Shown here: piece after piece, positions 35,166 through 62,197 of the stretch | Layout: each line of letters starts with the position of its first letter | How positions within the stretch are numbered: the stretch's first letter is position 1 | Origin: a virus | Taxonomy: Duplodnaviria; Heunggongvirae; Uroviricota; Caudoviricetes | Reading direction: 5' to 3' (one strand) | DNA: 64,000 nt | IMG/VR virus record: IMGVR_UViG_3300033489_000001 | Coordinates: 190,023-254,022 of that record | Notes under the pieces: generated by a model | What the model was told of the DNA's origin: nothing | The model's database searches: none | The model's input: only the letters and a program-made list of their open reading frames with translations | Translations under genes and position numbers: made by a program

Positions 35166-36684
35166 TGGCATTTAGTCGGTGTAATATAACCGGGATGGAA
35201 ACCAGAGATTTACATCCAGATGAAATTAGTAACAAGAATCTTCTTGAGCATATCAGAGGAGCTGATGGGGGCTTACCTCCCACGTTTGTTGGGATGACTT
35301 TTGTTCGTCATGTTAAAGAAGGAAGAGGATGGGATTCTGAATTTGCATGGGCAATTTATATTAGTCACGATCCCTGTCATGATGATCATCGTAAACGCTC
35401 AGTACTAGGAGATGACCGCAGTACCGTTATTGCCTTTCATCGAAACAAAGGGATTTTCCGCATTATTGGACGGGAGCTGCCTAAAAAGTTAGCTTTGGAG
35501 CTTGCAAGAGGAGACCTGCCAAAGATTGGAGAACAACCTCCTTATACCAACGGCCGTTTGTTATATTTTTGGTTTCTTTATGACTGGGAATCCCGCGACA
35601 AGCAGCTCTTACTAAAGCCTCCTGGGCCTGATTATGTTTATAGACCAAATGAGAAACTTTACCGTTGTGTACTTGGAATTGATCCTCCTTTGGATAAGAC
35701 GATCGATGAGATCTTAGCTTCTGTAGAATTTGAAGAGGCTAAGACAAAAGAGCCCTTAGGCTCTAAGGAATTTTCCGAGTACCTCGCCCATCATCTATTT
35801 AGCGAGGTTCATAAATTTATGCCTCCGGAAACCTTTGGGTATGGGCTTCCTGGGATTCAATCCAGATTCTTTCGAGGTGAATCCGCATTCACATTGAAAT
35901 CAAAGTGGGGTAACTATATAGTTCAAGTCACAAAGATTCTGGACCCATCAAGTTAAAGGATTCCAAGAATTACGAACTAAGAAAGAGGTGGACTCATGTT
36001 ATTACTGACCCCTTGGGCGTGTATTATAGGCGCAATTGCTTTCATCGTTCTTCTCTTTTTGGTCGAGTTAGATCGTTTTGGTTTTGCCACGCTATTGATG
36101 ATTGCAACGATAGTGGCGGCTCAATACTTTCACATAGCCGATATTTTGGGATGGGTAAGTAAGAACTACGCTTGGACACTAGTTTACGTCATTGTTTATC
36201 TGATATTGGGAATAGGTTGGTCGATTGGAAAGTGGGTTTTATTTCTACGAAAGTTCAACCGGAAGCGGCTAGAAGCTGTTTCTGCTGTACAGTCAACCGC
36301 AAAACAAGAAGACCCTCCAACACAATCTGTAAAGGATATTTCCGTCCACTTGAAACATGAGATGTATAAGGGGACTTATTTATCACAGAGACCCAAGGCA
36401 TCGGACTACAAGGGGACAATAATCGCATGGATGATCTGGTGGCCCATATCTATGATTAGCACCTTCTTGAATGATCCCGTCAGAGAACTATTCAACATCG
36501 TCTATGACCAGCTCAGTGGACTTTATCAAACCCTCGCTGACAAGATCGTTTCAGATATTGAGAAGAAGTAAACCTCCCCGGTGAACCTAAAGGCTTGACA
36601 CAACCCTCGATAGGTGTATGATAGGAGATATGTTTTTCGGACGGGCCACAGAAAGCAGTACGCGCTCTGAGAGTAAAATCTTTC

Positions 36685-37628: not shown

Positions 37629-38519
37629 CTAAGTAGCTTTCAATACTTTTCGAGCCTGAAGAGCTGCTGCTATCTTAGCTCTATGTTCTTTTGTTTTAGG
37701 ACGACCTTTTGTAGCAGCACTCAATTTTGCTCGTGTTTCATCTGAAAGAGATTTGCCTATTTTCGAAGCTCTAATCTTTTCCCTAGTTTCTTCTGAAACG
37801 GTAGCCCCAGAGTCTCGCCATTCTTTCCAACGCTTTTTATTGCACGAACTTATGATCGCACGCTGTTTAGCAGATATAGTCTTACCTTTGTGTATTCGAC
37901 TCACGGCCTCTCTAGCTGCGGGATCTATGAATTGACGTAAGGTGGCTTGTCGGAGTTTTTCTTTGGTTTCTGCACTGTGTGGTTTACGTTTTATAGGATT
38001 TAGCCTACGCCGTTTCCAAGCGGCCTTCATTTTAACTTTAGCAGATTCTGGCCTGGGTTTACCCCGACTTAAGATCTGAGCTTTACGTAATGCCTCTAAT
38101 GACTTTTCAGTGGGTCGTGGAGGTTTGTATCCGGGGGTATTACGGCGTCTTTCCCAAGCAGCTTTAATACTCTGACTAGCTTTTTTCTTACTTTCAACAG
38201 TTTTTTCATACCCCAGAATACCCCCACCCCCATCAGTTAAATTTGTCAGGTTGCAACCGAGTGTACGAAAATATTTAATCCAGTAGCATTCCGCTTCATT
38301 CCCATTTAACACTGGAACTTTTTGTATTACTCTGATCTCTGGTTTGATCCCAGCTTGTATCAATTTCTGTAACCAAAAATCTTTATGCGTCTTTTTATGT
38401 TTGCTACAATAAAGATGTTCGTAAAGGCGTTTACTAAGTTTTGCGGAAGTCCATCCGATATATCTGATTTCATCCGAAAAAGGATCTATGAGAGCATATA
38501 CTGTGGCCCATTGATTCAT
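37629..38519 (-). CDS. GIY-YIG homing endonuclease with NUMOD3 repeats
   Basis: VYALIDP..IRYIGWT..RLYEH, E..WI, YNLT-like CNLTDGG; HSAETKEKL-type repeats. Confidence 0.9.
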   Translation of the reverse strand: MNQWATVYALIDPFSDEIRYIGWTSAKLSKRLYEHLYCSKHKKTHKDFWLQKLIQAGIKPEIRVIQKVPVLNGNEAECYWIKYFRTLGCNLTNLTDGGGGILGYEKTVESKKKASQSIKAAWERRRNTPGYKPPRPTEKSLEALRKAQILSRGKPRPESAKVKMKAAWKRRRLNPIKRKPHSAETKEKLRQATLRQFIDPAAREAVSRIHKGKTISAKQRAIISSCNKKRWKEWRDSGATVSEETREKIRASKIGKSLSDETRAKLSAATKGRPKTKEHRAKIAAALQARKVLKAT

Positions 38520-38603: not shown

Positions 38604-39203
38604 ATGGCTATTCTAACTTTACAAGTGCCGGAAGAAACTGCACGAGTTTTACGAGAAATTCCAGTTCCAGGAAACCAAGAAAAAGATGAAGCTCACGTTA
38701 CGATCCTATTCTTCGGAAAAGAACTACCAATTACTCAAATCAGTTCTATGCTTCCAGTGATCTATGAGATTACTTCAAAGACACTTCCCTTTTCTGTGTC
38801 AACCAATCACATTTCAACTTTTCCATCGGGAGCCGATGGTGTCCCAGTTATTGCAAGATTAAACTCCCCATCTTTACATATCTTTAGAGAGACGCTATGT
38901 AAAGCTTTCGATGATGTGGGTCTGTTCTACGATACTAAATTTAAAACATACAAACCGCACTTCACCTTGGCGTATGCCTCCGATCCTAAGACGACCGTAG
39001 GCATTGACATCCCTGAAGTGTCTTGGGGCGCTCACGAAGTAGTTCTTTGGGGGTCCGACCAAGGCACCGGGCGGCTAATCATCAAGTTCCCCCTGAGCTT
39101 ACCTGAGGGGAAGGTTTCAACGCTCAGAATGCCCCAAGAGTCTGTTTTGTACCGATCCTTTGTGAAGCTCGCTAGGTACGGCAAATTTAGTAAGGTTGCT
39201 TGA
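38604..39203 (+). CDS. 2H phosphoesterase / LigT-like 2',3'-cyclic phosphodiesterase
   Basis: Two HxT motifs: AHVTI and PHFTL. Confidence 0.85.
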   Translation: MAILTLQVPEETARVLREIPVPGNQEKDEAHVTILFFGKELPITQISSMLPVIYEITSKTLPFSVSTNHISTFPSGADGVPVIARLNSPSLHIFRETLCKAFDDVGLFYDTKFKTYKPHFTLAYASDPKTTVGIDIPEVSWGAHEVVLWGSDQGTGRLIIKFPLSLPEGKVSTLRMPQESVLYRSFVKLARYGKFSKVA

Positions 39204-39227: not shown

Positions 39228-41413
39228 ATGATAGATTGTAAAGATTGCAAACTAGCCTGTGGGATGTGGCCAAAAAATATGCATAAAGGTGAGTTTCATT
39301 TACTTTGGCAATGCGATAGCAAAATAACCGAAGTGGGGGAGAAGTCTTTTACCGTCTGTGATACGACTGATCCAGAAAAACTAAGCGAGATATTAATTGA
39401 AGACATATCTGAGGGGGCCGACCGAAAATTAATCAAACTGGGAGCTTTACTAAGAGAATGTGAAGGTTATCTTGACTCTTTGGGTGGACATCGGGCTCAT
39501 GTGAATGTAAAAGTTTTTATCCGTTAATAGACTGTTTGCTTTTTGGTGTATGCAATTGTATATGCTTATGATCGTATAACAACTCAAACTATCCATGAAT
39601 AACCCAACCAAAGAGGAATTAGAGGAAGCTTTTGCCTTTCTTGAAAGATATCCGATCAAACGAGATCTTAGAAGTTTAACTGAGAATGAGTACAATAGAG
39701 AACAAGCTAGGAAGTTTTTGTCCATATTAACCCCCAACTCTTCGTTAGCAAAAAGAATGCAGAATATAGCAGAAGGAAAAGATGAGTAATCTTCTAGAAA
39801 ATGTGGTGGCTATCACTATCACGCGGCTGGAGGCCGCTGGAGGTGATTGTCATGGCAAACCACAAAAGAGGTCGTCCGAAAAATAGGCGCGCAGGTTGCC
39901 TTATGTGCAAGAGGCACAAAGCAAATGGGGCTAAGGGGAAATTGATAAATCAGACTTGGCAAGAACGTAGAGCTGTTCTTTCTGAAAAAGAACAACGAAA
40001 CGAAATAGAAGCATGGAAGACGGAAAAATAGTTTACGAAAAAATGAGTTACTCCAGTTGTATCGCTTATGGAACAACTCTTCCTAGTCTCTTCTTTGCTG
40101 AAGAGACTATTTACGAAATGGAATACCCAGTTTGGTATCCAAATGGACATATTTACATTGCAAACCGTAAACCTAGATATACCCCTCCTGAAAAATAACA
40201 GTATGCATTAGGGTCACTTTCTCATATGCAAATATTACAGATAGGTAAGTAGAATTGATGCCTATTTTTCTTGTCTTTAAAGTTAAAGAGTTATCTTGTC
40301 CCCCTCCTCCAAATGGCTGGTGGTTAACCATTGCTGGTTTGCTACTGATTATTAGTGGCTTGTGTAATATGTGGCAACTTAGGACTATATTGAAAGAAAA
40401 GGGAAAGACTTTAGATGTTCTAAAACAACTTATGGCTATGAGTAGTGAAAATATAGAGTTAAGCCATGTACATTCTTCTTGTCCTTACCAAAATTGGGTC
40501 GCAAGTAGCTGCAACCTTTATTACAAAAGTAAAGCTGAACAAAAAGAAGTGGACTCAAAACAAACTCAAAATTAACGTAACTGTCTAACCAATAAATTTC
40601 TTTCAGGCCAGGGATAGTTTATCGTAGCCCTGAAAGCATCCCTTATATAAGGCTTCCCATCTGGTCTGCATTTGCTGATATCATTGCAAGTCATTAATTG
40701 TTCTCTAAATACGCCCCTGTAGTAAGATGCCGCAGCCGCTTTCAATCTGGGGTTGGATTCATAATCAGCTTGAATATAGCCTACCAGATACCAATAAGCT
40801 TCAGTAAGGTCTTCTTGACAACTAGCTCCAGTCTTGATTTTGATGTTTAATTCTTCAATTTTTTGAGTTAGTTCAGGATGCTTTGTTGAACTTGGGGTGG
40901 GGTAACCGTGATCGTGAATATTGATTTCTTGTTGAGCTATATTTCTGACTTGAGCACAGACATAGACAGTAGCACTTCCAACAGCTGTAATGATACTTAT
41001 TACAATTGTCCAGATGCCTATGATTTTTTGGATTTGGATTTGATTTGGCACATCAGGTCTTATTTTTTAAGGGCTAACATCAAACCTAAGATAACAACTA
41101 CTGCTATTAGGAAGGGCACCACCAAATATACCCATGTGGCTTTCACAACCACGTAATTACTTCCGGGGGGTAAACTCTTCATTATCTCTGGTTGTTCTGC
41201 TCCCCGTTTTAATTCAATATCTGGAAGAGGCTGATCTTTTGGTAGGGGTAGGTTTCCGGAAAGGAGTAGATCTCTTGAGGAATCTAATTTTATTACCTCT
41301 TCAATTGTTTTGACACGTTGTTCTAACGCACGAAGTTCTGCATCATATTTTTCCGAGTTTTCTTCGTATTTTACTGTCAAGGCAGACTGGTCTTTTATAA
41401 ATTGCAACCGCAC
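39228..41413. other. Small hypothetical CDSs (+: 39228-39527, 39595-39789, 39801-40031, 40013-40198, 40255-40575; -: 40572-41051, 41060-41413)
   Basis: ORF track; several have single transmembrane segments. Confidence 0.55.
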
Positions 41414-41509
41414 ACTAGAGGTAAAGAATAGAAGCTTTTGTTGGAAACATTACAAAAGCATAAAAAACGCTTGACAACCTTCTCCCCTTAGTCTAGTCTG
41501 ATAGACAGT

Positions 41510-41593
41510 ATGTTTCAGCGCCTTTCAGCTTCTCTCCTTCTATCTTTATCATTGCTTTTAACTAAGCTGCGAGCGCTCCCGTCTATCCACTAA
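41510..41593 (+). CDS. Leader peptide 2 MFQRLSASLLLSLSLLLTKLRALPSIH upstream of the Leu/Ser tRNA cluster
   Basis: Follows TTGACA(41471)-N17-TAGTCT; 10 Leu codons (all six types) and 5 Ser codons. Confidence 0.8.
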   Translation: MFQRLSASLLLSLSLLLTKLRALPSIH

Positions 41594-41640
41594 TCTAGTC
41601 CCTAGCGCCCGCAGCAGCCCATAACCAGGGGCTAGCACAA

Positions 41641-41723
41641 GCGGGTGTGGCGGAACGGAAGACGCACCAGGTTTAGGCCCTGGCGTTCGAAAGAACGTGG
41701 GGGTTCAAATCCCTTCGCCCGCA
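41641..41723 (+). tRNA. tRNA-Leu(TAG)
   Basis: CCAGG-TTTAGGC-CCTGG; long variable arm. Confidence 0.93.
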
Positions 41724-41729
41724 CTGTGA

Positions 41730-41812
41730 GCAGGTGTGGTGGAATGGCAGACACGCCGGATCGAGGGTTCGGTGGCTTCAAAACCGTGCTGGTTCAAATC
41801 CAGTCACCTGCA
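41730..41812 (+). tRNA. tRNA-Leu(GAG), C33
   Basis: CCGGA-TCGAGGG-TTCGG. Confidence 0.9.
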
Positions 41813-41865
41813 CCGGTAGTTCACGGAAATAGCTATGTTTACGGTTACTTGAACATTAAGGATAA

Positions 41866-41950
41866 GCTCCGATGGTGGAACTCGGCATACACCCCGGTCT
41901 TAGAAGCCGGGGCTCGAAAGAGCGTACAGGTTCAAATCCTGTTCGGAGCA
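41866..41950 (+). tRNA. tRNA-Leu(TAG), second isodecoder
   Basis: Loop CTTAGAA. Confidence 0.92.
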
Positions 41951-41954
41951 CTAC

Positions 41955-42037
41955 GGAAAGCAAACTGGTCCGGGATCAGCCCCGCCTTGAAAGCGGTGGG
42001 CACCGAGAGGTGTGGAGTTCGACCCTTCTGCTTTCCG
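41955..42037 (+). tRNA. tRNA-Ser(TGA)
   Basis: Loop CTTGAAA; G73. Confidence 0.9.
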
Positions 42038-42044
42038 CCGGTTT

Positions 42045-42128
42045 GGAGGATGAACTGGCCGTGGGGTCAGACCTGCTTCGAAAACAGGATGCACCGAGAG
42101 GTGTGGAGTTCGAGCCTTCCGTCCTCCG
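42045..42128 (+). tRNA. tRNA-Ser(CGA)
   Basis: Loop TTCGAAA; variable and T arms shared with the Ser(TGA) gene. Confidence 0.88.
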
Positions 42129-42147
42129 CTGATCTTTGAAAAGTTAT

Positions 42148-42235
42148 GCGGATATGGTGAAATTGGCAGCCACGGTAGTCTCAAAAGCTACTGGTCTAAA
42201 AAACCGTACTGGTTCGAGTCCAGTTATCCGCACCA
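42148..42235 (+). tRNA. tRNA-Leu(CAA)
   Basis: Loop CTCAAAA; CCA. Confidence 0.93.
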
Positions 42236-42236
42236 T

Positions 42237-42321
42237 GCGGGCGTGGCGTAATTGGCAGCCGCGTCAGACTTAAAATCTGGTGGTCTAAAAAACCGTGCTG
42301 GTTCAAGTCCAGTCGCCCGCA
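42237..42321 (+). tRNA. tRNA-Leu(TAA)
   Basis: Loop CTTAAAA. Confidence 0.93.
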
Positions 42322-42384
42322 CAAAAACAATGGATTATCAAAACAATTGTTGAAGTTTACATTTGGTTTGGTATCCTCTGCGGA

Positions 42385-43017
42385 ATGACAGCCAAGCCTG
42401 AGTATAGACATCCAAACACTAAATGCAGTATTTGTGAAAAACCAGTATATCGGCGTCCAAATGAATTACTTAGACTAAAAAATGTATATTGTTGTAGAAA
42501 ATGTCAAGGGGCACCAAGAAAGGCAACTCTTAAATCAAAAATTTGTCCCCAATGTAAGAAAGAATTTACGCACCCTTCGTACCAACCCAGAACGTATTGT
42601 TCGCTTTCTTGCTCCAGCCTAGCAAGACGCGGAAGGCATCATAAACATAATAAGGGATATTTGCCCCGGAACGTTGATCGTCTCTTGCATTTGCTAGAAG
42701 AAGCTAAAACAACTCACTGCATGATTGAAGGATGTTTGTACGAAAACACTCTCGATGTACACAGGCTGATAACTGGCAAAAAAGGAGGAAAATATAAGAA
42801 AGGTAATATGTTTGCTTTATGCCCCAATCACCACGCTGAATTGCATAGAGGTGTCATTGAGGTCCAAAAGGTAGGCCCCTATAAACTAAAAATTGTTAGA
42901 ATAATAGCAAAAACGCAATTAGATAAATATGCAAGGCAATGGCGTATATGGAAAATGAGTCTAATTGATAACAAAAAAGGCCATGCTGATATTGGAAGAC
43001 AGCCGGATATTGGTTAG
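42385..43017 (+). CDS. HNH endonuclease with Zn fingers, inserted in the tRNA cluster
   Basis: CSICEK, CPQCKKEF..YCSLSC, LDVHRL...GG.Y...N...LCPNHHAELH; start reassigned to ATG 42385. Confidence 0.82.
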   Translation: MTAKPEYRHPNTKCSICEKPVYRRPNELLRLKNVYCCRKCQGAPRKATLKSKICPQCKKEFTHPSYQPRTYCSLSCSSLARRGRHHKHNKGYLPRNVDRLLHLLEEAKTTHCMIEGCLYENTLDVHRLITGKKGGKYKKGNMFALCPNHHAELHRGVIEVQKVGPYKLKIVRIIAKTQLDKYARQWRIWKMSLIDNKKGHADIGRQPDIG

Positions 43018-43080
43018 CCGGGCTCGCCTGGAAAGCGGGTGGCCGTAAAAGGTCTAAGAGTTCGATTCCCTTGTCTTCCG
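42994..43080 (+). tRNA. tRNA-Ser(GGA)
   Basis: Loop CTGGAAA; long variable arm. Confidence 0.92.
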
Positions 43081-43131
43081 CTAAAGCGAGGCTGAAAAGC
43101 CCTTGGCGGTTCGATCCCGCCCCTTTCCGCC
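43080..43131 (+). pseudogene. 3' half of a Ser-type tRNA
   Basis: Variable arm GGCT-GAAA-AGCC, T arm GGCGG-TTCGATC-CCGCC, CCTTTCC-G-CCA; no 5' half. Confidence 0.7.
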
Positions 43132-44600: not shown

Positions 44601-45398
44601 ATGCCCATTTCACTGAAACACCTAGATTTAACTATTCCTGAACTGGCTTACTTATTAGGTTTTCTTCAGACCGATGGAACTATGGCAAAAGAAAGTAGGA
44701 ATAGAGGTCGCATTGTTGTAGAGGTATCTAAACGTGACAGAGATATACTAAGAAAACTCAAAAAAATCATTCCTGTTTACTCTTCTTTGAGGACAAGAAA
44801 AAGAGATACTAATTTTAAGAAAGATCATAATAGTGTCATTTGGCGTGTATTTGATCAATCTATACGAGAACTATTTAATTTAGCAGGCTTACCGTACGGT
44901 AAAAAATCTGACTTGGTGTGTGCCCCAAATGTTCCCTTTTCCAAGCCCGATTACTATCGTGGCATTATTGATGGGGATGGCTCATTAGGTTTTACTAGCG
45001 CTGGATTCCCTTTTTTGTCTTTAACAACAGCAAGTTCTTCTTTAGTGGATAGTTATTTGACTTACTTATTCTCATTGACAGGAAAGAAGAAGATTCTGCA
45101 TCCTAATAAACGAGACGCCGTGTACAATCCATGCGTTTTTAAAGAAGACGCGCAGACCGTTGCTAAAAATTTATACTATGAAGGTTGTTTGTCTTTAGAT
45201 AGAAAGAAACGATTAGCCCACTCTATTCTTTTGTGGCAACGTCCGAATAATATGCGAAAACGAGGGAATTTTAAACATTGGACGCCGGAAGAGGATGCTG
45301 TAGTTAAACGTGAATCAACAACTATAGCCGCCAACCTACTTGGACGAACTGAGATAAGTATTCGTGTGAGGGCCAGTCGAATTCGGAAACGGAAATAA
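44601..45398 (+). CDS. Double-motif LAGLIDADG homing endonuclease
   Basis: AYLLGFLQTDG and YYRGIIDGDGS; C-terminal WTPEED HTH; start reassigned to 44601. Confidence 0.9.
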   Translation: MPISLKHLDLTIPELAYLLGFLQTDGTMAKESRNRGRIVVEVSKRDRDILRKLKKIIPVYSSLRTRKRDTNFKKDHNSVIWRVFDQSIRELFNLAGLPYGKKSDLVCAPNVPFSKPDYYRGIIDGDGSLGFTSAGFPFLSLTTASSSLVDSYLTYLFSLTGKKKILHPNKRDAVYNPCVFKEDAQTVAKNLYYEGCLSLDRKKRLAHSILLWQRPNNMRKRGNFKHWTPEEDAVVKRESTTIAANLLGRTEISIRVRASRIRKRK

Positions 45399-45435: not shown

Positions 45436-46542
45436 ATGGGCAAACCTATTAAAATATTTGCTGACAATCCTGATCCGGCTACAATGAATCAATTCTATGA
45501 GGCAATGAAGCAAGATAGTGCGGTTCAGGGAGCGATCATGCCAGACGTTCATAAAGGATATACGCTTCCTATTGGATCGGTCGTGGCCACGGAGGGTATG
45601 ATTTATCCTGCATGGGTCGGATACGATATTGGGTGTGGTGTATGCGCAACCCTGACTAGTTTTGACAAGAGAGAGATAGACATTCATCGTGAAGCAATCT
45701 TCAAGAAAATTTACGAAACGGTTCCCATTGGGCTTGGGGTGCATCATGCGAAGATTCAGGAACCGTGGGATACTAAACAACTTCAGCATACAAAAAAGCT
45801 AGCTACCATCTATAAGGACAAGCATGGGGAGCTACAATTAGGGTCGTTAGGGTCAGGTAACCATTTTATTGAGGTCGGATACGATGAAAATGATGGGATC
45901 TGGGTCGTTGTTCATAGCGGTTCTCGTGGGGTTGGCCATGGCGTTGCTTCTCACTACATGGCATTAGCATCCGGGGGAGGCCAAAAAGAATGGCACTTTG
46001 GGTTAAAAACCGACAGTCAAGAAGGTCAAGACTATATTGCTGATCTAGATTTCTGTCTTGCCTTTGCACTTGAAAACAGGCTCAGGTTATTAAACAGCAC
46101 TATAGCTTCAATCCAAACCTTTTGTTCCGGTGGAAAAGGGCTAAGCTCAGAACTTATCAACCGAAACCATAATCATGCTGTACAAAAAGATGGTAGATGG
46201 ATCCATCGAAAGGGGGCTACTCATGCTGAGGAAGGGATGTTTGGTGTTATCCCTGGAAACATGCGCGATGGTTCTTTCATTGTTATAGGAAAAGGCAATC
46301 CAGAATCTTTATGCTCTAGCTCTCACGGTGCTGGTAGAGTAAAAGGTCGAGCAGAAGCAAAAAGAACCATAACACTAGAGCATTTTCAGGATCAAATGAG
46401 AGAGGTTACGGCTAGAGTTGATGAAACCGTCCTTGATGAATCTCCAGGCGCTTACAAGAATATTTTTGAGGTTATGCTCCTTCAAAGAGATTTGGTAGAA
46501 GTGCTGCACAAAGTAAACCCAATGATTAACGTCAAAGGATGA
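45436..46542 (+). CDS. rtcB: RtcB RNA ligase
   Basis: MPDVHKGY.LPIG, VGYDIGCG, LGSGNHFIE, HSGSRG, HNH, HRKGA, SSSHGAGR, DESPGAYK. Confidence 0.96.
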   Translation: MGKPIKIFADNPDPATMNQFYEAMKQDSAVQGAIMPDVHKGYTLPIGSVVATEGMIYPAWVGYDIGCGVCATLTSFDKREIDIHREAIFKKIYETVPIGLGVHHAKIQEPWDTKQLQHTKKLATIYKDKHGELQLGSLGSGNHFIEVGYDENDGIWVVVHSGSRGVGHGVASHYMALASGGGQKEWHFGLKTDSQEGQDYIADLDFCLAFALENRLRLLNSTIASIQTFCSGGKGLSSELINRNHNHAVQKDGRWIHRKGATHAEEGMFGVIPGNMRDGSFIVIGKGNPESLCSSSHGAGRVKGRAEAKRTITLEHFQDQMREVTARVDETVLDESPGAYKNIFEVMLLQRDLVEVLHKVNPMINVKG

Positions 46543-46907
46543 AAACCGTAATGTCCGAGCAAGAAGACTTGGTTGAAATCCTTGTCAAATTAGAGCCCTT
46601 GGCGGTTATTAAAGGATGACACGGAGTGCTATGCCTCTCAAAAAACATACGACTGTGGTGGGCATAAAATGGAGGCAAGATAAAGACAACTTGGCTTTTT
46701 ATCGTGGCCCAATCTATTTCTTAGCAAATGATCCAAAATGTAGCCGCCGTGGTAACTTTGGTATGTTTGATGGGGAGAAGGTAACAACATCGGGTAATAC
46801 ACTAGAGGTAAATTATGATGCCATCACCGATTGGTTGCCTTTTGAAGACGTGGCAAATCTTCTTCCTATTGATGTGCAAGACCTAAATTAGAAATAGGAT
46901 AAAAATA

Positions 46908-47957
46908 ATGAGTGACAATAGAGCTTTAGCAACGATTAGGCGGGTGGCCTCCATAGAAGTCATTCCGAATGCCAATAACATTGAACTAGCTCATATTGAC
47001 GGATGGCAATGTGTTGTCAAAAAAGGAGAGTTCACTTCCGGTGACCTTGGCGTTTATTTTGAAATCGACTCTTATTTGCCAATCGAACCTCGGTACGAGT
47101 TCTTACGTAAGTCTTCGTATAGGAAGCTACCCGAGTTAACTGACAGGCGTTGCGAAGGTTTTAGACTTCGTACGGTTAAGCTCAGAGGCGCTTTATCACA
47201 AGGCTTGCTGCTACCTCTATCTACGTTTCCTGAACTAGATAATGCAGAGGTTGGCTCAGATGTAACCCAGACTCTCAATGTAGCCTTATTTGAGCCTCCA
47301 ATAGATGCATCTCTAGAGGGTAAGGTCAAAGGCTTATTTCCAGGGTATCTCCATAAGACACACCAGGATCGCATACAAAATGTTCTAGAATATCTTACGC
47401 TATATAAAGATGAGTTGTATGAAGTAACAGAAAAGATAAACGGCACATCAATGACCGTGTTGTATAACAAGGGCTACTATGGTGTGTTTGGTCACGCTAT
47501 GGAATTCTGTCTCGATACTCCTAACGCGTTCATTAGAGTAGCTGAAGCGTTAGGTATCGAAAAGGCTCTAAGAGCGCTAAACAAGAATATAGCTATCCAA
47601 GGTGAGCTTGCTGGCGAGGGTATCCAGGGAAATCCCTTGAAGATTAAAGGGCATAAGTTTCTAGTGTTTGATATTTGGGATGTTGATACATGCAAGTACT
47701 TTACAGCGGTAAAGCGTAACCTCATACTAAGAGAGCTTGTTGACGTAGGACTCAAACTAGACCATGTGCCTGTAGTAAAGATTATGTATCTCAGAGATAT
47801 TCCGGAGCTAACACTTGAGAAATTATTAGCATTTGCTGATGGCATGTCTTTGATTAACCCAAAAGTACGTAGAGAGGGCGTTGTCTTCAAGTCTTTTGAA
47901 AACGTAGATGTACCATCATTCAAAGTTCTCTCGAATGATTACTTGCTACACGAGTGA
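46908..47957 (+). CDS. ATP-dependent RNA ligase, Rnl2/DRB0094 type
   Basis: VYFEIDS, TEKINGTS (motif I), QGELAG, VFDI, REGVVFK, FKVLSN. Confidence 0.92.
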   Translation: MSDNRALATIRRVASIEVIPNANNIELAHIDGWQCVVKKGEFTSGDLGVYFEIDSYLPIEPRYEFLRKSSYRKLPELTDRRCEGFRLRTVKLRGALSQGLLLPLSTFPELDNAEVGSDVTQTLNVALFEPPIDASLEGKVKGLFPGYLHKTHQDRIQNVLEYLTLYKDELYEVTEKINGTSMTVLYNKGYYGVFGHAMEFCLDTPNAFIRVAEALGIEKALRALNKNIAIQGELAGEGIQGNPLKIKGHKFLVFDIWDVDTCKYFTAVKRNLILRELVDVGLKLDHVPVVKIMYLRDIPELTLEKLLAFADGMSLINPKVRREGVVFKSFENVDVPSFKVLSNDYLLHE

Positions 47958-48743: not shown

Positions 48744-49697
48744 ATGGATTTTAAAGCAATAGCTGAGAAAAATAAGATCCTCGAAATTCAAGTTGGTTCC
48801 CACTTGTTTGGAACTAACACGCCGGACAGTGATTTGGATTTAGTAGGCATCTTTCTGCCCTCCGAAGAGATGGTTTACGGTTTTCAAGAATGTGACGAAG
48901 TGGACCTGAGCATAGTGGCTAAAGATGAAACCGGGCGAAATACCTCGGAAGCTATTGACCGAAAATATTACGAGTTCCGAAAGTTTGTTCGCTTGGCTAT
49001 GCAGAATAACCCAAACATTTTGCATGTGCTATTTGTAGATCAGAAGAACATTGTAGCTATCAACCAGGCTGGAAAAAGACTACTAGCCAAGGCCGAGCTT
49101 TTTCCTCACAAAGGAGCGCATCACCGGTTTGTCAAATATGCCGATGGGCAACGACACAAGATGAGGATTAAACCCGAAAACTATGCCAAGTTGGAACAAG
49201 GACTAGAGGTTCTCAGTAAAGTAGACCCTCACATGGTTTTAGGTGAACTACGCAATACCCCTCCCTTTGTTGATAAGGGTAAAGGGAGGCATATTTGCTT
49301 AGGCGACTTGAACTTTGAGGCTGGAGTATACGCAAAGAAAGCCATTGGGATGATCAAGACTCGGTTAAGCAAAGCTACGAGCCGGGTTCAGCTCTATACA
49401 AAATTTGGTTTTGACGTGAAATTTGGATCAAATCTCATCCAGCTTTTGAAAGAAGGCATTGAGATAATGAACACGGGGCGGATTGTGATGCCTTTAGCTT
49501 ACCGGCAAGACATCCTGGATATCAAGCAGGGGAAGTATTCCGTGGAAGAGATTTTGAAGTGGGCCGACGATTTGGTTGAGGAAGCCAGGGGGGCTTATGA
49601 AACGTCCAAACTGCCCACCGAACCCCGTAGCAAAGAGATTGAAGCCTTCGTTATGGAAGAAGTGAGAGGCTTCTTGACGCGATCCCTAATATGCTAA
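48744..49697 (+). CDS. Pol-beta-family nucleotidyltransferase (RlaP-like)
   Basis: GSHLFGTNTPDSDLDLVGIF, NNPNIL..LF, K..SNLIQLL. Confidence 0.85.
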   Translation: MDFKAIAEKNKILEIQVGSHLFGTNTPDSDLDLVGIFLPSEEMVYGFQECDEVDLSIVAKDETGRNTSEAIDRKYYEFRKFVRLAMQNNPNILHVLFVDQKNIVAINQAGKRLLAKAELFPHKGAHHRFVKYADGQRHKMRIKPENYAKLEQGLEVLSKVDPHMVLGELRNTPPFVDKGKGRHICLGDLNFEAGVYAKKAIGMIKTRLSKATSRVQLYTKFGFDVKFGSNLIQLLKEGIEIMNTGRIVMPLAYRQDILDIKQGKYSVEEILKWADDLVEEARGAYETSKLPTEPRSKEIEAFVMEEVRGFLTRSLIC

Positions 49698-57279: not shown

Positions 57280-57399
57280 ATGCGCACCCAGCTCACAACG
57301 ACCCTGACCGTGACTACAGCAACCCGCTGTACGGTCGTCGTATGCGCTGCGGCTGCCGCTACAGGTACCGGGCCTCTGGCTGCAATCATCTGGCGATAA
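57280..57399 (+). CDS. Leader peptide 3 MRTQLTTTLTVTTATRCTVVVCAAAAATGTGPLAAIIWR upstream of the Trp/Cys/Gly/Val/Ala/Thr tRNA cluster
   Basis: Follows TTGACA(57240)-N17-CAGACT; 28 of 39 residues are T, A, V, C, G or W. Confidence 0.82.
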   Translation: MRTQLTTTLTVTTATRCTVVVCAAAAATGTGPLAAIIWR

Positions 57400-57417
57400 T
57401 CCCAAGCCAGAATAGAT

Positions 57418-57488
57418 AGGCCAGAGGCGTTGGTTGCCGAGCAGACTCCAAATCTGCTGTGGACAGAGTTCGATTCTCTGCTGGCCTG
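57418..57488 (+). tRNA. tRNA-Trp(CCA)
   Basis: GCAGA-CTCCAAA-TCTGC. Confidence 0.9.
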
Positions 57489-60032: not shown

Positions 60033-60092
60033 ATGTACCAACAACGACAACAGCGAGAGCAAGAACGGGAGCGACGCCAACAGCGTCGCTAA
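60033..60092 (+). CDS. Leader peptide 4 MYQQRQQREQERERRQQRR upstream of the Glu/Gln/Arg tRNA cluster
   Basis: 17 consecutive CAR/GAR/CGN codons; TTGACA at 59940 upstream. Confidence 0.85.
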   Translation: MYQQRQQREQERERRQQRR

Positions 60093-60757: not shown

Positions 60758-62197
60758 ATGAAAGCTAGGATCAGTTATGTGGCTTTAGAAACTAACTCTG
60801 GAAAGATCCAGAAGTTAGAAGAACTTTATACTATTTATAGGTCCTATGTTCAAACTTGTATTGACAAGATGATTTCGGATAAGAGCCCTAAAGTTCTCCC
60901 TTCAAACCGTAGAACCTATTTTCCAACTTCTGATATTTTAAGCTCTCAAATTTTAAAAAATGCCCAAATGCATAGTGTCCAAGTTGTAGAAACTTGGATC
61001 AAACAACGTTACGCTCACAAACTTAGGAAGTACTTAAATACTCAAGATCTAACTAGCCATCAAAAACTAGAACTTCGTTGCATAGGAAAATATCAACTCA
61101 AAAAGCCGGGTAAGTTCGGTAAAGGAATCATCTCACAAGAGATGATTGACCTTTATTGGGGTTGGGTTTGGAATCCTGAGATAGCTGGGAAAACCCCTCA
61201 AATCTCTGAATCTTTTCCGATGTGGATGTCAGAGATGACTTGTGTTTTTGGATCTTCCGAAGATTCAAGTCACTTTGGTTGGTGGCTCAGATTCTCTTCT
61301 TTGCAAAACGGAGTTAGGATTCAGATTCCTTTAGCTTATAACCCCTATCTCAAAAAGGTTGAAGGTTTAGCAAAATCTGTTTTAGTTAGGAAGCGTGAAG
61401 GCCGTTGGACTTTTCAATTTTGTGAGAAAGATCTTGAGGAAGAAAACGAAGAGGAAAAAAAGCCCAAAGAATTTGATGGCTCTCAAGGCAAAATAGGGAT
61501 TGATGTTGGATTAAACGTTATAGCTGCTACTTCTGATGGAAGGCTTTATGGGGAAGCTTTCAAATCAGAGTTTGACTATCTTTACGCCAAGGTTAGAAAC
61601 CTAAGATCCAACCGATTTAGGCAAGGACTCAAGAGTGATTCAAGAAGACTTGCTAGATTGGAAGTAAAGCTCTCGGGTCAAATTAAAACTATTACAGGAA
61701 CTATCTCTAACCAACTTGTCAAGGCTTACCTTAATTATACCTTCGTTATTGAGGACTTAGACTTAAGAGGTTGTAGGGGACAAAAGCGCTTCGCATATAG
61801 AGCGCTTCATTCTTCCTTAAGCCATAAGGCTAAGATTGAAGAAGTAAACCCCGCTTATACTTCTCAACCGTGTCCCTCTTGCGGTCATATTTCCAGGTCT
61901 AACAGATCTGGGGTAAAGTTTATCTGTCAGAACTGTGGCAGAAGATCTCATGCTGATGTGATTGGAGCGATCAATTTGCTCGGACGTTCCGGGGACAAAC
62001 AAATTGATCGTTGTGAAGATCCATCGGAAGTAAGAGCCCTTCTAAGAGAGCGAAGCCTACTTCGTAGGATCAGTTCCTTGGATCGGCTTAAAACAAAAGA
62101 GCTGAAACCGAACAGCCAGAGGCTTACTACCAAGGGATCTGAGAATTCAGACGTTGGCACAGCCTCAAATCAGGTAGAAGCTCATGTGCAAGTTTGA
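60758..62197 (+). mobile_element. tnpB: Second solo TnpB-like RNA-guided nuclease (479 aa, divergent N-terminus)
   Basis: IGIDVG, VIEDL, VNPAYTSQPCPSCG, CQNCG..HADVIGAINL; no tnpA and no adjacent CRISPR repeats. Confidence 0.88.

Follow-up and report, generated by a model that had tools for sequence, protein, structure and literature searches.

Our analysis of a 64,000-nucleotide (nt) stretch of soil-phage DNA (the window; bases 190023-254022 of the 411,618-base-pair (bp) IMG/VR virus record IMGVR_UViG_3300033489_000001) points to 41471-41648, on the + strand, as the putative control region of a leucine/serine transfer RNA (tRNA) operon. The region contains a promoter-like site, a short open reading frame (ORF; leader 2) made of codons that the tRNAs behind it read, and RNA segments able to pair with each other and with the first tRNA. 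It apparently belongs to a class of leader-peptide sensors located before phage tRNA operons, and this class appears to be unpublished, as no publication describing codon-matched leaders in that position was found. An attenuator-like explanation of the region as a whole is offered tentatively.

Leader 2 consists of 27 codons followed by TAA (41510-41593). The first-pass annotation of this DNA had described a 27-amino-acid (aa) ORF with ten Leu and five Ser that uses all six Leu codons, and the sequence confirms this description: the Leu codons are CTT (three), CTC (two), CTA, CTG, TTA (two) and TTG, and the Ser codons are TCA (two) and TCT (three), with no AGY. Leu and Ser account for 15 of 26 residues (binomial p=1.3e-6 against proteome frequencies), and a Leu plus Ser content of at least 58% is reached by just four of the 2,882 small ORFs of the 411-kb genome (ATG-initiated, 15-60 codons), leader 2 being one of them. 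The codon types match the anticodons of the operon behind; in particular, serine is encoded by TCN only, and tRNA-Ser(GCU) is located elsewhere, outside the operon. The finer details are the weak points of this match, since all six Leu codons would appear in ten draws with a chance probability of 0.15, and five Ser codons would all be TCN with a chance probability of 0.17. The Leu/Ser run occupies codons 5-17 (41522-41560), which are unpaired in the predicted leader fold. The ORF uses eight Leu/Ser codon types, seven of which are first met between codons 5 and 15. In our judgement, leader 2 is probably a translated codon-matched sensor; the promoter motif, the codon match and the identity of the decoy described below are read from the sequence, and translation of the ORF is what we infer.

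The promoter-like site (41471-41499) is formed by TTGACA (41471-41476), a 17-nt spacer and TAGTCT (41494-41499). The predicted transcription start at about 41505-41507 leaves a 5' untranslated region of 3-5 nt. As the ATG lies 10 nt past the -10 box and no Shine-Dalgarno sequence is present, the leader 2 mRNA would be effectively leaderless. The pattern TTGACA-N17-YANWCT, which was derived post hoc, occurs three times in the window (0.11 expected) and four times in the whole 411-kb genome, three of the four sites being those of leaders 2, 3 and 4. Just 5' of the -35 box there is an A/T-rich inverted repeat of 7 bp with a 10-nt loop (CTTTTGT and ACAAAAG, 41435-41458), which could be an UP element or an operator; the promoters of the other three leaders are also preceded by A-rich inverted repeats. 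The best sigma-70-like match of the region is found at 36595-36622 (TTGACA, 16 nt, TATGAT; 11 of 12 positions), 63 nt 5' of the lone tRNA-Ser(GCU) gene, with no leader ORF between them. A Ser-rich ORF before the same tRNA (36471-36584) was considered as a further leader and dropped, since the tRNA has its own promoter downstream of the ORF and a longer gene overlaps the ORF.

The evidence supports at least three codon-matched leaders in the genome, leader 2 being among them. Leader 3 (57280-57399) has a high content of Thr, Ala, Val, Cys, Gly and Trp and is located ahead of exactly those tRNAs (p=1e-7), and leader 4 (60033-60092), in which 17 of 18 residues are Gln, Arg or Glu, precedes two tRNA genes each for Glu, Gln and Arg (p=2e-13). 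All seven Arg codons of leader 4 are CGN, the AGR-reading tRNAs being situated 27 kb away in another cluster. The composition of both leaders is unique among the 2,882 small ORFs of the genome. We regard this replication of the codon match within one genome as decisive for the meaning of the leader ORF.

The tRNA regions of three related phages of 320-416 kb (G002, G003 and G004; loci L027-L032) served as a negative control. These phages share 65-73% identity in a conserved 515-aa protein and carry 39-50 tRNAs each in mixed order, and none of the 174 ORFs upstream of their tRNA clusters is a codon-matched leader (minimum p 0.003). In the present phage, unlike its relatives, there are several tRNA clusters ordered by amino acid; given the mixed order and the lack of leaders in the relatives, the sorting by amino acid behind leaders appears to be derived in this genome. 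An independent screen covered 80 IMG/VR loci picked only for two adjacent tRNAs (590 tRNAs, 318 ORFs). In one of them, L223 (IMGVR_UViG_3300027804_001850, an unrelated phage contig; control region at 1258-1520), a 22-codon leader with five TTA, four AGA and one CTA codon (p=5.6e-6 among the 318 ORFs) precedes Leu(UAA), Arg(UCU) and Leu(UAG). A candidate antiterminator follows its stop codon directly, and a hairpin with a seven-T run makes up a canonical terminator. A Lys/Leu/Ile-rich ORF of 33 aa before Leu, Arg, Lys and Ile tRNAs (L165 and L214) has no codon-level match and was set aside as a weak candidate. On this sequence evidence, codon-matched leaders before phage tRNA genes are real and recurrent.

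Four segments capable of pairing were recognized in leader 2 and the first tRNA of the operon, tRNA-Leu(UAG) (tRNA-1). Segment 1, the anti-decoy (41566-41577), is located in codons 19-23 of the ORF and has a core, GCGAGCG, resembling the 5' acceptor strand of a Leu tRNA. Segment 2, the decoy (41604-41615), is a copy of the tRNA 3' acceptor strand, and segments 3 (GCGGGTG, 41641-41647) and 4 (41716-41722) are the 5' and 3' acceptor strands of tRNA-1 itself. The pairings that the first-pass annotation had reported were all recovered. The decoy AGCGCCCGCAG (41604-41614) does contain an exact copy of the tRNA-1 3' acceptor strand: its core CGCCCGCA (41606-41613) is identical to positions 66-73 of tRNA-1 (41716-41723), that is, to the 3' acceptor strand with the discriminator A, and also to the same part of tRNA-Leu(UAA) (42237-42322). 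An exact 8-mer copy of the tRNA 3' end is found in 0.6% of dinucleotide-shuffled leaders (p=0.006). The decoy can also pair with the tRNA 5' end (41641-41648), forming 7 bp with 41641-41647, one of them G-U, and a G41605-U41648 wobble. Finally, the anti-decoy CTGCGAGCGCT (41567-41577) pairs with the decoy in 10 of 11 positions, with one A-C mismatch (41572/41609), and the 1:2 helix extends one pair further, to 41566/41615.

The energy of the 1:2 helix is -21.8 kcal/mol compared to -10.5 +/- 2.1 kcal/mol in dinucleotide shuffles, none of 2,000 of which reached it, and the minimum free energy of 41560-41640 has z=-4.3. On these modelled energies, it is very probable that the 1:2 hairpin is a real RNA structure. 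The stop codon is situated in its loop; counted from the first base of this codon, the core of the 2:3 helix begins 15 nt further on. Every predicted fold also contains a small hairpin (AGCCC/GGGCU, 8-nt loop, 41616-41633), placed between decoy and tRNA, with no U-tract after it. No intrinsic terminator was found in 41594-41640, and no U-tract follows any of the hairpins or tRNA-1. Leader 2 is thus a terminator-less variant, with a strong predicted hairpin holding a copy of the tRNA 3' end.

The duplex of the decoy with tRNA positions 1-7 is predicted at -12.2 kcal/mol, equal to the acceptor stem itself, and has p=0.03 against a conservative dinucleotide shuffle. When pairing with the first 10 nt of every tRNA of the genome was compared, leader 2 and its own tRNA (-16.7 kcal/mol) ranked second of 36, the top rank belonging to Leu(UAA), which is in the same operon and has the same 3' strand; leader 3 and its own first tRNA (-16.9 kcal/mol) ranked first of 36. 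Both duplexes are stronger than those of all 63 first-in-cluster tRNAs of the relatives and all 233 of the random IMG/VR sample; among these controls, the means were -7.5 to -9.5 kcal/mol and the minimum was -15.5 kcal/mol. Leader 3 has pairing elements of its own at 57367-57433: an element in ORF codons 30-34 pairs with positions 2-11 of tRNA-Trp and beyond (-24.1 kcal/mol over 16 nt, stronger than all controls). An alternative partner for it, AGCCAGA (57405-57411), located just past the stop codon, is a one-base-shorter mimic of the tRNA-Trp 5' end.

In RNAfold predictions, the leader alone forms helix 1:2 with a probability (P) of 0.99, and helix 2:3 forms, also at P 0.99, when the 5' half of the tRNA is present and its 3' strand is absent. 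With the whole tRNA the two states are near-isoenergetic (-73.6 and -72.2 kcal/mol, a gap of 1.4). A ribosome was then modelled as a mask with a footprint from -15 to +12 relative to the A site. With the A site at codons 2-15 the acceptor stem is predicted at P 0.8-0.9, and with the A site at codons 17-27 the trap (helix 2:3) is predicted at P 0.99. This modelling supports mutually exclusive 1:2, 2:3 and 3:4 helices and a segment 1 within reach of a translating ribosome.

We propose the following mechanism. A sigma-70-like promoter would give rise to a nearly leaderless transcript, the first 84 nt of which are an ORF in codons read by the downstream tRNAs, and a ribosome on it would report the decoding speed of Leu and Ser codons. 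The four segments would form a 1-2-3-4 attenuator layout, in which the acceptor stem of tRNA-1 takes the place of a terminator as helix 3:4. If the ribosome stalls at a hungry codon between 5 and 15, or if no ribosome is present, segment 1 would stay free and helix 1:2 would close, so that tRNA-1 could fold and be cut by RNase P. If the ribosome covers segment 1, at the stop codon, segments 1 and 2 would be separated as segment 3 emerges, helix 2:3 would form, and maturation of tRNA-Leu(UAG) would be delayed or lost. Decoding capacity would in this way feed back negatively on tRNA output. The geometry of the leader is consistent with both branches: since nearly all codon types are first met in the early part of the run, a hungry ribosome would halt where segment 1 stays free, and since the stop codon is in the hairpin loop, a terminating ribosome would part segments 1 and 2, with the 2:3 core just past its footprint. 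The exchange of helices and its effect on tRNA yield are what we infer from modelled folding. Control of tRNA-1 maturation by the decoy switch is plausible, if rather uncertain. That leader 2 is a natural 'folding attenuator', in which the speed of translation on cognate codons decides the folding and maturation of a phage tRNA, is a somewhat doubtful proposition.

Several observations weigh against this mechanism. As no terminator is present, only the first of seven or eight tRNAs would be touched. The trap is not evidently irreversible: once the ribosome has gone, segment 1 is again able to displace the tRNA strand, and so the mechanism has to assume some irreversible step, for example degradation of the misfolded precursor. 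Leu codons 20 and 23 are inside segment 1, and a stall there would favour the trap. The decoy and the anti-decoy could both stem from one truncated tRNA gene. The arrangement also differs among the sister leaders. The anti-tRNA element of leader 3 is part of its ORF, and a stall there is predicted to produce the trap at equilibrium, which is the opposite logic. Leaders 1 and 4 pair unexceptionally with their own first tRNAs (ranks 22 and 16 of 36), and their sole element is a GC-rich hairpin where the ORF ends, a feature of each of the four leaders. The idea of one switch logic common to the four was therefore dropped. The folding predictions themselves are also affected: for most control tRNAs with flanks RNAfold gives unformed or 'trapped' acceptor stems (median P about 0), so that the state probabilities are weak and the comparison of duplex energies with controls is the sounder statistic. 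The acceptor-stem probability was for this reason discarded as a test of the design. The first-pass annotation had claimed that a ribosome stalled in the Leu/Ser run leaves the anti-decoy free to trap the decoy, and that a ribosome reaching the stop codon releases the decoy to block the tRNA. This logic holds up in part, being reproduced by the exclusive helices and the ribosome masks of the model; the missing terminator, the restriction to the first tRNA and the opposite behaviour of leader 3 speak against it.

Comparative evidence for the mechanism was also sought, and no leader-bearing relative was found in viral contigs, metagenome contigs or a protein collection. An exact 28-mer of tRNA-1 had no matches in viral contigs, and the 36 homologues of a neighbouring 150-aa protein were on contigs without tRNAs. 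A search with RtcB gave no close relative, and a divergent 117-aa neighbour is an orphan. Matches in a phage record collection were at the tRNA level only, two DNA runs of the source sample contained no variant in leader 2, and no RNA run containing the locus was found.

Other explanations account for parts of these data. The leader may be a genuine decoding sensor with its output elsewhere, in read-through or survival of the RNA (a pyrimidine-rich leader shielded from Rho, a hairpin pause, non-canonical termination or nuclease entry), the 1:2 hairpin being a pause or stability element and the likeness to the tRNA end being inherited and not functional. This explanation, which we consider possible but doubtful, is favoured by the fact that control of a whole operon needs a step acting on the entire transcript, by L223, where a leader of this kind is coupled to a canonical terminator, and by the GC-rich hairpin common to the four ORF ends. 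Moreover, canonical terminators are not enriched over shuffled sequence in the window at 26000-64000 (22 vs 19.3 expected, and 19 vs 17.7), and so the phage or its host may terminate differently. However, the interval between the ORF and the tRNA contains no terminator or U-tract, and such an output leaves unexplained that, for two of the four leaders, the duplex with the first tRNA is stronger than in all 296 controls. As for Rho, leader 2 is C-rich and G-poor (C/G 2.0-2.4), like a Rho-loading site, but CTN and TCN codons impose C, and with simple Rho polarity a stall would lower tRNA output, unless the stalled ribosome covers the loading site. The Rho idea, having codon-imposed C-richness as its sole basis, was dropped. 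It is unlikely, but worth weighing, that the hairpin 41566-41615 is the relic of a tandem tRNA-Leu that lost its middle, a decayed T-arm being enclosed by the two acceptor strands (5' GCGAGCG, 3' CGCCCGC-A), which would have no switching role; at most the hairpin would stabilise or insulate the leader RNA. A single event would then yield both the copy of the 3' strand with the discriminator and a partner one base off the 5' strand of Leu(UAA), in an operon where Leu isoacceptors are duplicated and their acceptor stems are near-identical. The T-loop, T-stem and acceptor end of Leu(UAA) (p about 0.03) and of tRNA-1 (p about 0.06) can be aligned with 41594-41613, and 41570-41596 resembles the 3' end and trailer of Ser(CGA) (p about 0.01, uncorrected for nine comparisons), but this likeness beyond the acceptor strands is weak and is lost on multiple-test correction. 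Neither ARAGORN nor Rfam (E up to 5) found a tRNA-like fold at the hairpin. The arms of the hairpin are far better kept than its loop, which suggests selection on pairing, and the register of the leader 3 element, positions 2-11, shows that it is not a copied 3' strand. Besides, origin from a tRNA is compatible with later use as a switch.

The two remaining explanations are less probable still. The switch could be real and have the classical polarity, a stall at the last codons of the run or at Leu codons 20 and 23 freeing the decoy and withholding tRNA-Leu(UAG), which would make the region a shut-off or feed-forward device and not a homeostat. We consider this improbable, as a hungry ribosome would halt at the earliest scarce codon, which for seven of the eight types lies at positions 5-15 and leaves segment 1 free; withholding a scarce tRNA would also have no obvious benefit. 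Nevertheless, regulatory codons are placed in segment 1 of trp-type attenuators, and segment 1 of leader 2 contains a CTC and a CTG, the latter being the rarest Leu codon (7% of all Leu codons). Masks at codons 16-27 give the trap at P 0.74-1.0, and leader 3 at equilibrium likewise traps its tRNA in run stalls. Finally, the ORF could encode a small hydrophobic membrane or signal-like peptide with a basic N-terminus and a Leu/Ser core, adjacent to tRNA genes by coincidence, or not be translated at all. Membrane peptides typically have cores of this composition, the genome contains three further small ORFs equally rich in Leu and Ser, and a Shine-Dalgarno sequence is lacking. All the same, this is very improbable: the base rate of such Leu/Ser-rich ORFs is about 0.1%, the sister leaders, of which leader 4 is purely Gln/Arg/Glu, are not membrane peptides and match their own operons (p 1e-7 to 2e-13), and leaders 2, 3 and 4 share a promoter motif near-absent elsewhere. 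A start codon 10-11 nt past the -10 box fits leaderless translation.

The putative attenuator-like control of leader 2 has counterparts among the leaders of amino-acid operons (trpL, hisL, leuL, thrL, ilvL and pheL, and pheM of pheST). These, too, have a promoter-proximal short ORF enriched in the sensed codons, and ilvL and thrL sense several amino acids together. Their 1:2, 2:3 and 3:4 pairings are likewise exclusive. Segment 1 lies within the ORF there as well, and segment 2 nearly repeats segment 4, a resemblance common to all attenuators. In contrast to these systems, leader 2 would regulate tRNAs and not biosynthetic enzymes, its codon run is upstream of segment 1 and not within it, and its mRNA is nearly leaderless. 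Its 3:4 helix is a tRNA acceptor stem with no U-tract, and the output would be RNA folding or processing; the terminator of leader-peptide attenuators, a GC hairpin with a U-tract serving as the 3:4 helix, is absent. A cmscan search of 41400-42340 (E up to 5) returned only tRNAs and noise, with no match to the amino-acid leader families of Rfam (Leu_leader, Thr_leader, His_leader, etc.). The L223 leader (1258-1433) shares with leader 2 the order of a promoter, a short codon-matched ORF and the first tRNA. Unlike leader 2, which lacks a terminator and whose segment 2 targets the tRNA, it has a terminator of a hairpin and U7, with the antiterminator after the stop codon.

In a synthetic RNase P riboswitch, maturation of a tRNA precursor by RNase P depends on which of the alternative pairings its 5' leader adopts (Ender et al., 2021, PMC7897497), and so the proposed kind of output is physically workable. 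That device is engineered, is driven by an aptamer ligand and hides the single-stranded leader beside the cleavage site (PMC7897497), whereas in leader 2 the signal would be the position of the ribosome and the hidden element would be the 5' acceptor strand. In the trn operon of Anabaena PCC 7120, a long tRNA array is induced by stress (Santamaria-Gomez et al., 2021, PMC8421152; TrcR, PMC10272220). As in the present phage, extra tRNA genes are found there beside RNA-repair genes such as rtcB, and they are switched on when translation is impaired; their control is by direct repeats in the promoter and a repressor (PMC8421152; PMC10272220), and leader peptides or attenuation are not mentioned in PMC8421152.

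Phage tRNA genes are usually regarded as passively expressed cargo. Leader 2 would imply that the phage gauges decoding capacity for each codon family and adjusts its own tRNA supply, and the location of the operon in an RNA-repair island (RtcB, RNA ligase, LigT-like protein and RlaP) points to a response to depletion or cleavage of host tRNAs. The decoy switch, if true, would represent a new principle, the control of tRNA folding and processing by ribosome position, and a compact natural part for synthetic biology. A folding attenuator, likewise if true, would be the ribosome-driven counterpart of the synthetic RNase P riboswitch and would provide codon-matched leaders before phage tRNA operons with a second mode of output beside terminators. 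Even without a working switch, codon-matched leaders lacking canonical terminators exist, and general models must account for them.

All 36 tRNA genes found in the genome, together with transfer-messenger RNA, are inside the window on the + strand. The Leu/Ser operon begins with tRNA-Leu(UAG) (41641-41723), which was identified by ARAGORN and by the Rfam tRNA model (50.7 bits). CCA is not encoded, and the discriminator A73 is at 41723. The remainder of the operon (41730-42322) comprises Leu(GAG), Leu(UAG), Ser(UGA), Ser(CGA), Leu(CAA) and Leu(UAA), all called by ARAGORN except Ser(CGA). The probable tRNA-Ser(CGA) gene, at about 42045-42131, was missed by both ARAGORN and Rfam and was recognized because it can be aligned from end to end with the three Ser tRNAs that were called, among them the neighbouring tRNA-Ser(UGA). 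It has a compensated acceptor stem and a single mismatch where the anticodon stem begins at its base. A tRNA-Ser(GGA) gene (42994-43081) is located downstream of the operon, behind an HNH-like ORF that overlaps its start. The 3' acceptor strand of tRNA-1 could form six of seven pairs with the 5' strand of tRNA-2 seven bases further on (41716-41736). If tRNA-1 were indeed trapped, its freed 3' strand could disturb tRNA-2 as well. A 19-mer from the D-arm of tRNA-Leu(UAG) (41647-41665) occurs exactly in more than 119 metagenome contigs, which otherwise share only tRNA-Leu (72-80% identity); being a common bacterial tRNA-Leu D-arm, it is a possible clue to the host.

The RNA-repair genes surround the tRNA operons; with a TnpB/Cas12f-like ORF located directly behind the Glu/Gln/Arg operon, they occupy 38604-39203, 45436-47957, 48744-49697 and 60758-62197. 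RtcB was recognized from its own sequence, and the RNA ligase, which has a PHA02142 OB domain, the LigT-like 2H phosphoesterase and RlaP were recognized with Pfam. Among the tRNA genes there are also three candidate homing-endonuclease ORFs (42385-43017, 37629-38519 and 44601-45398; HNH-like, GIY-YIG-like and LAGLIDADG-like).

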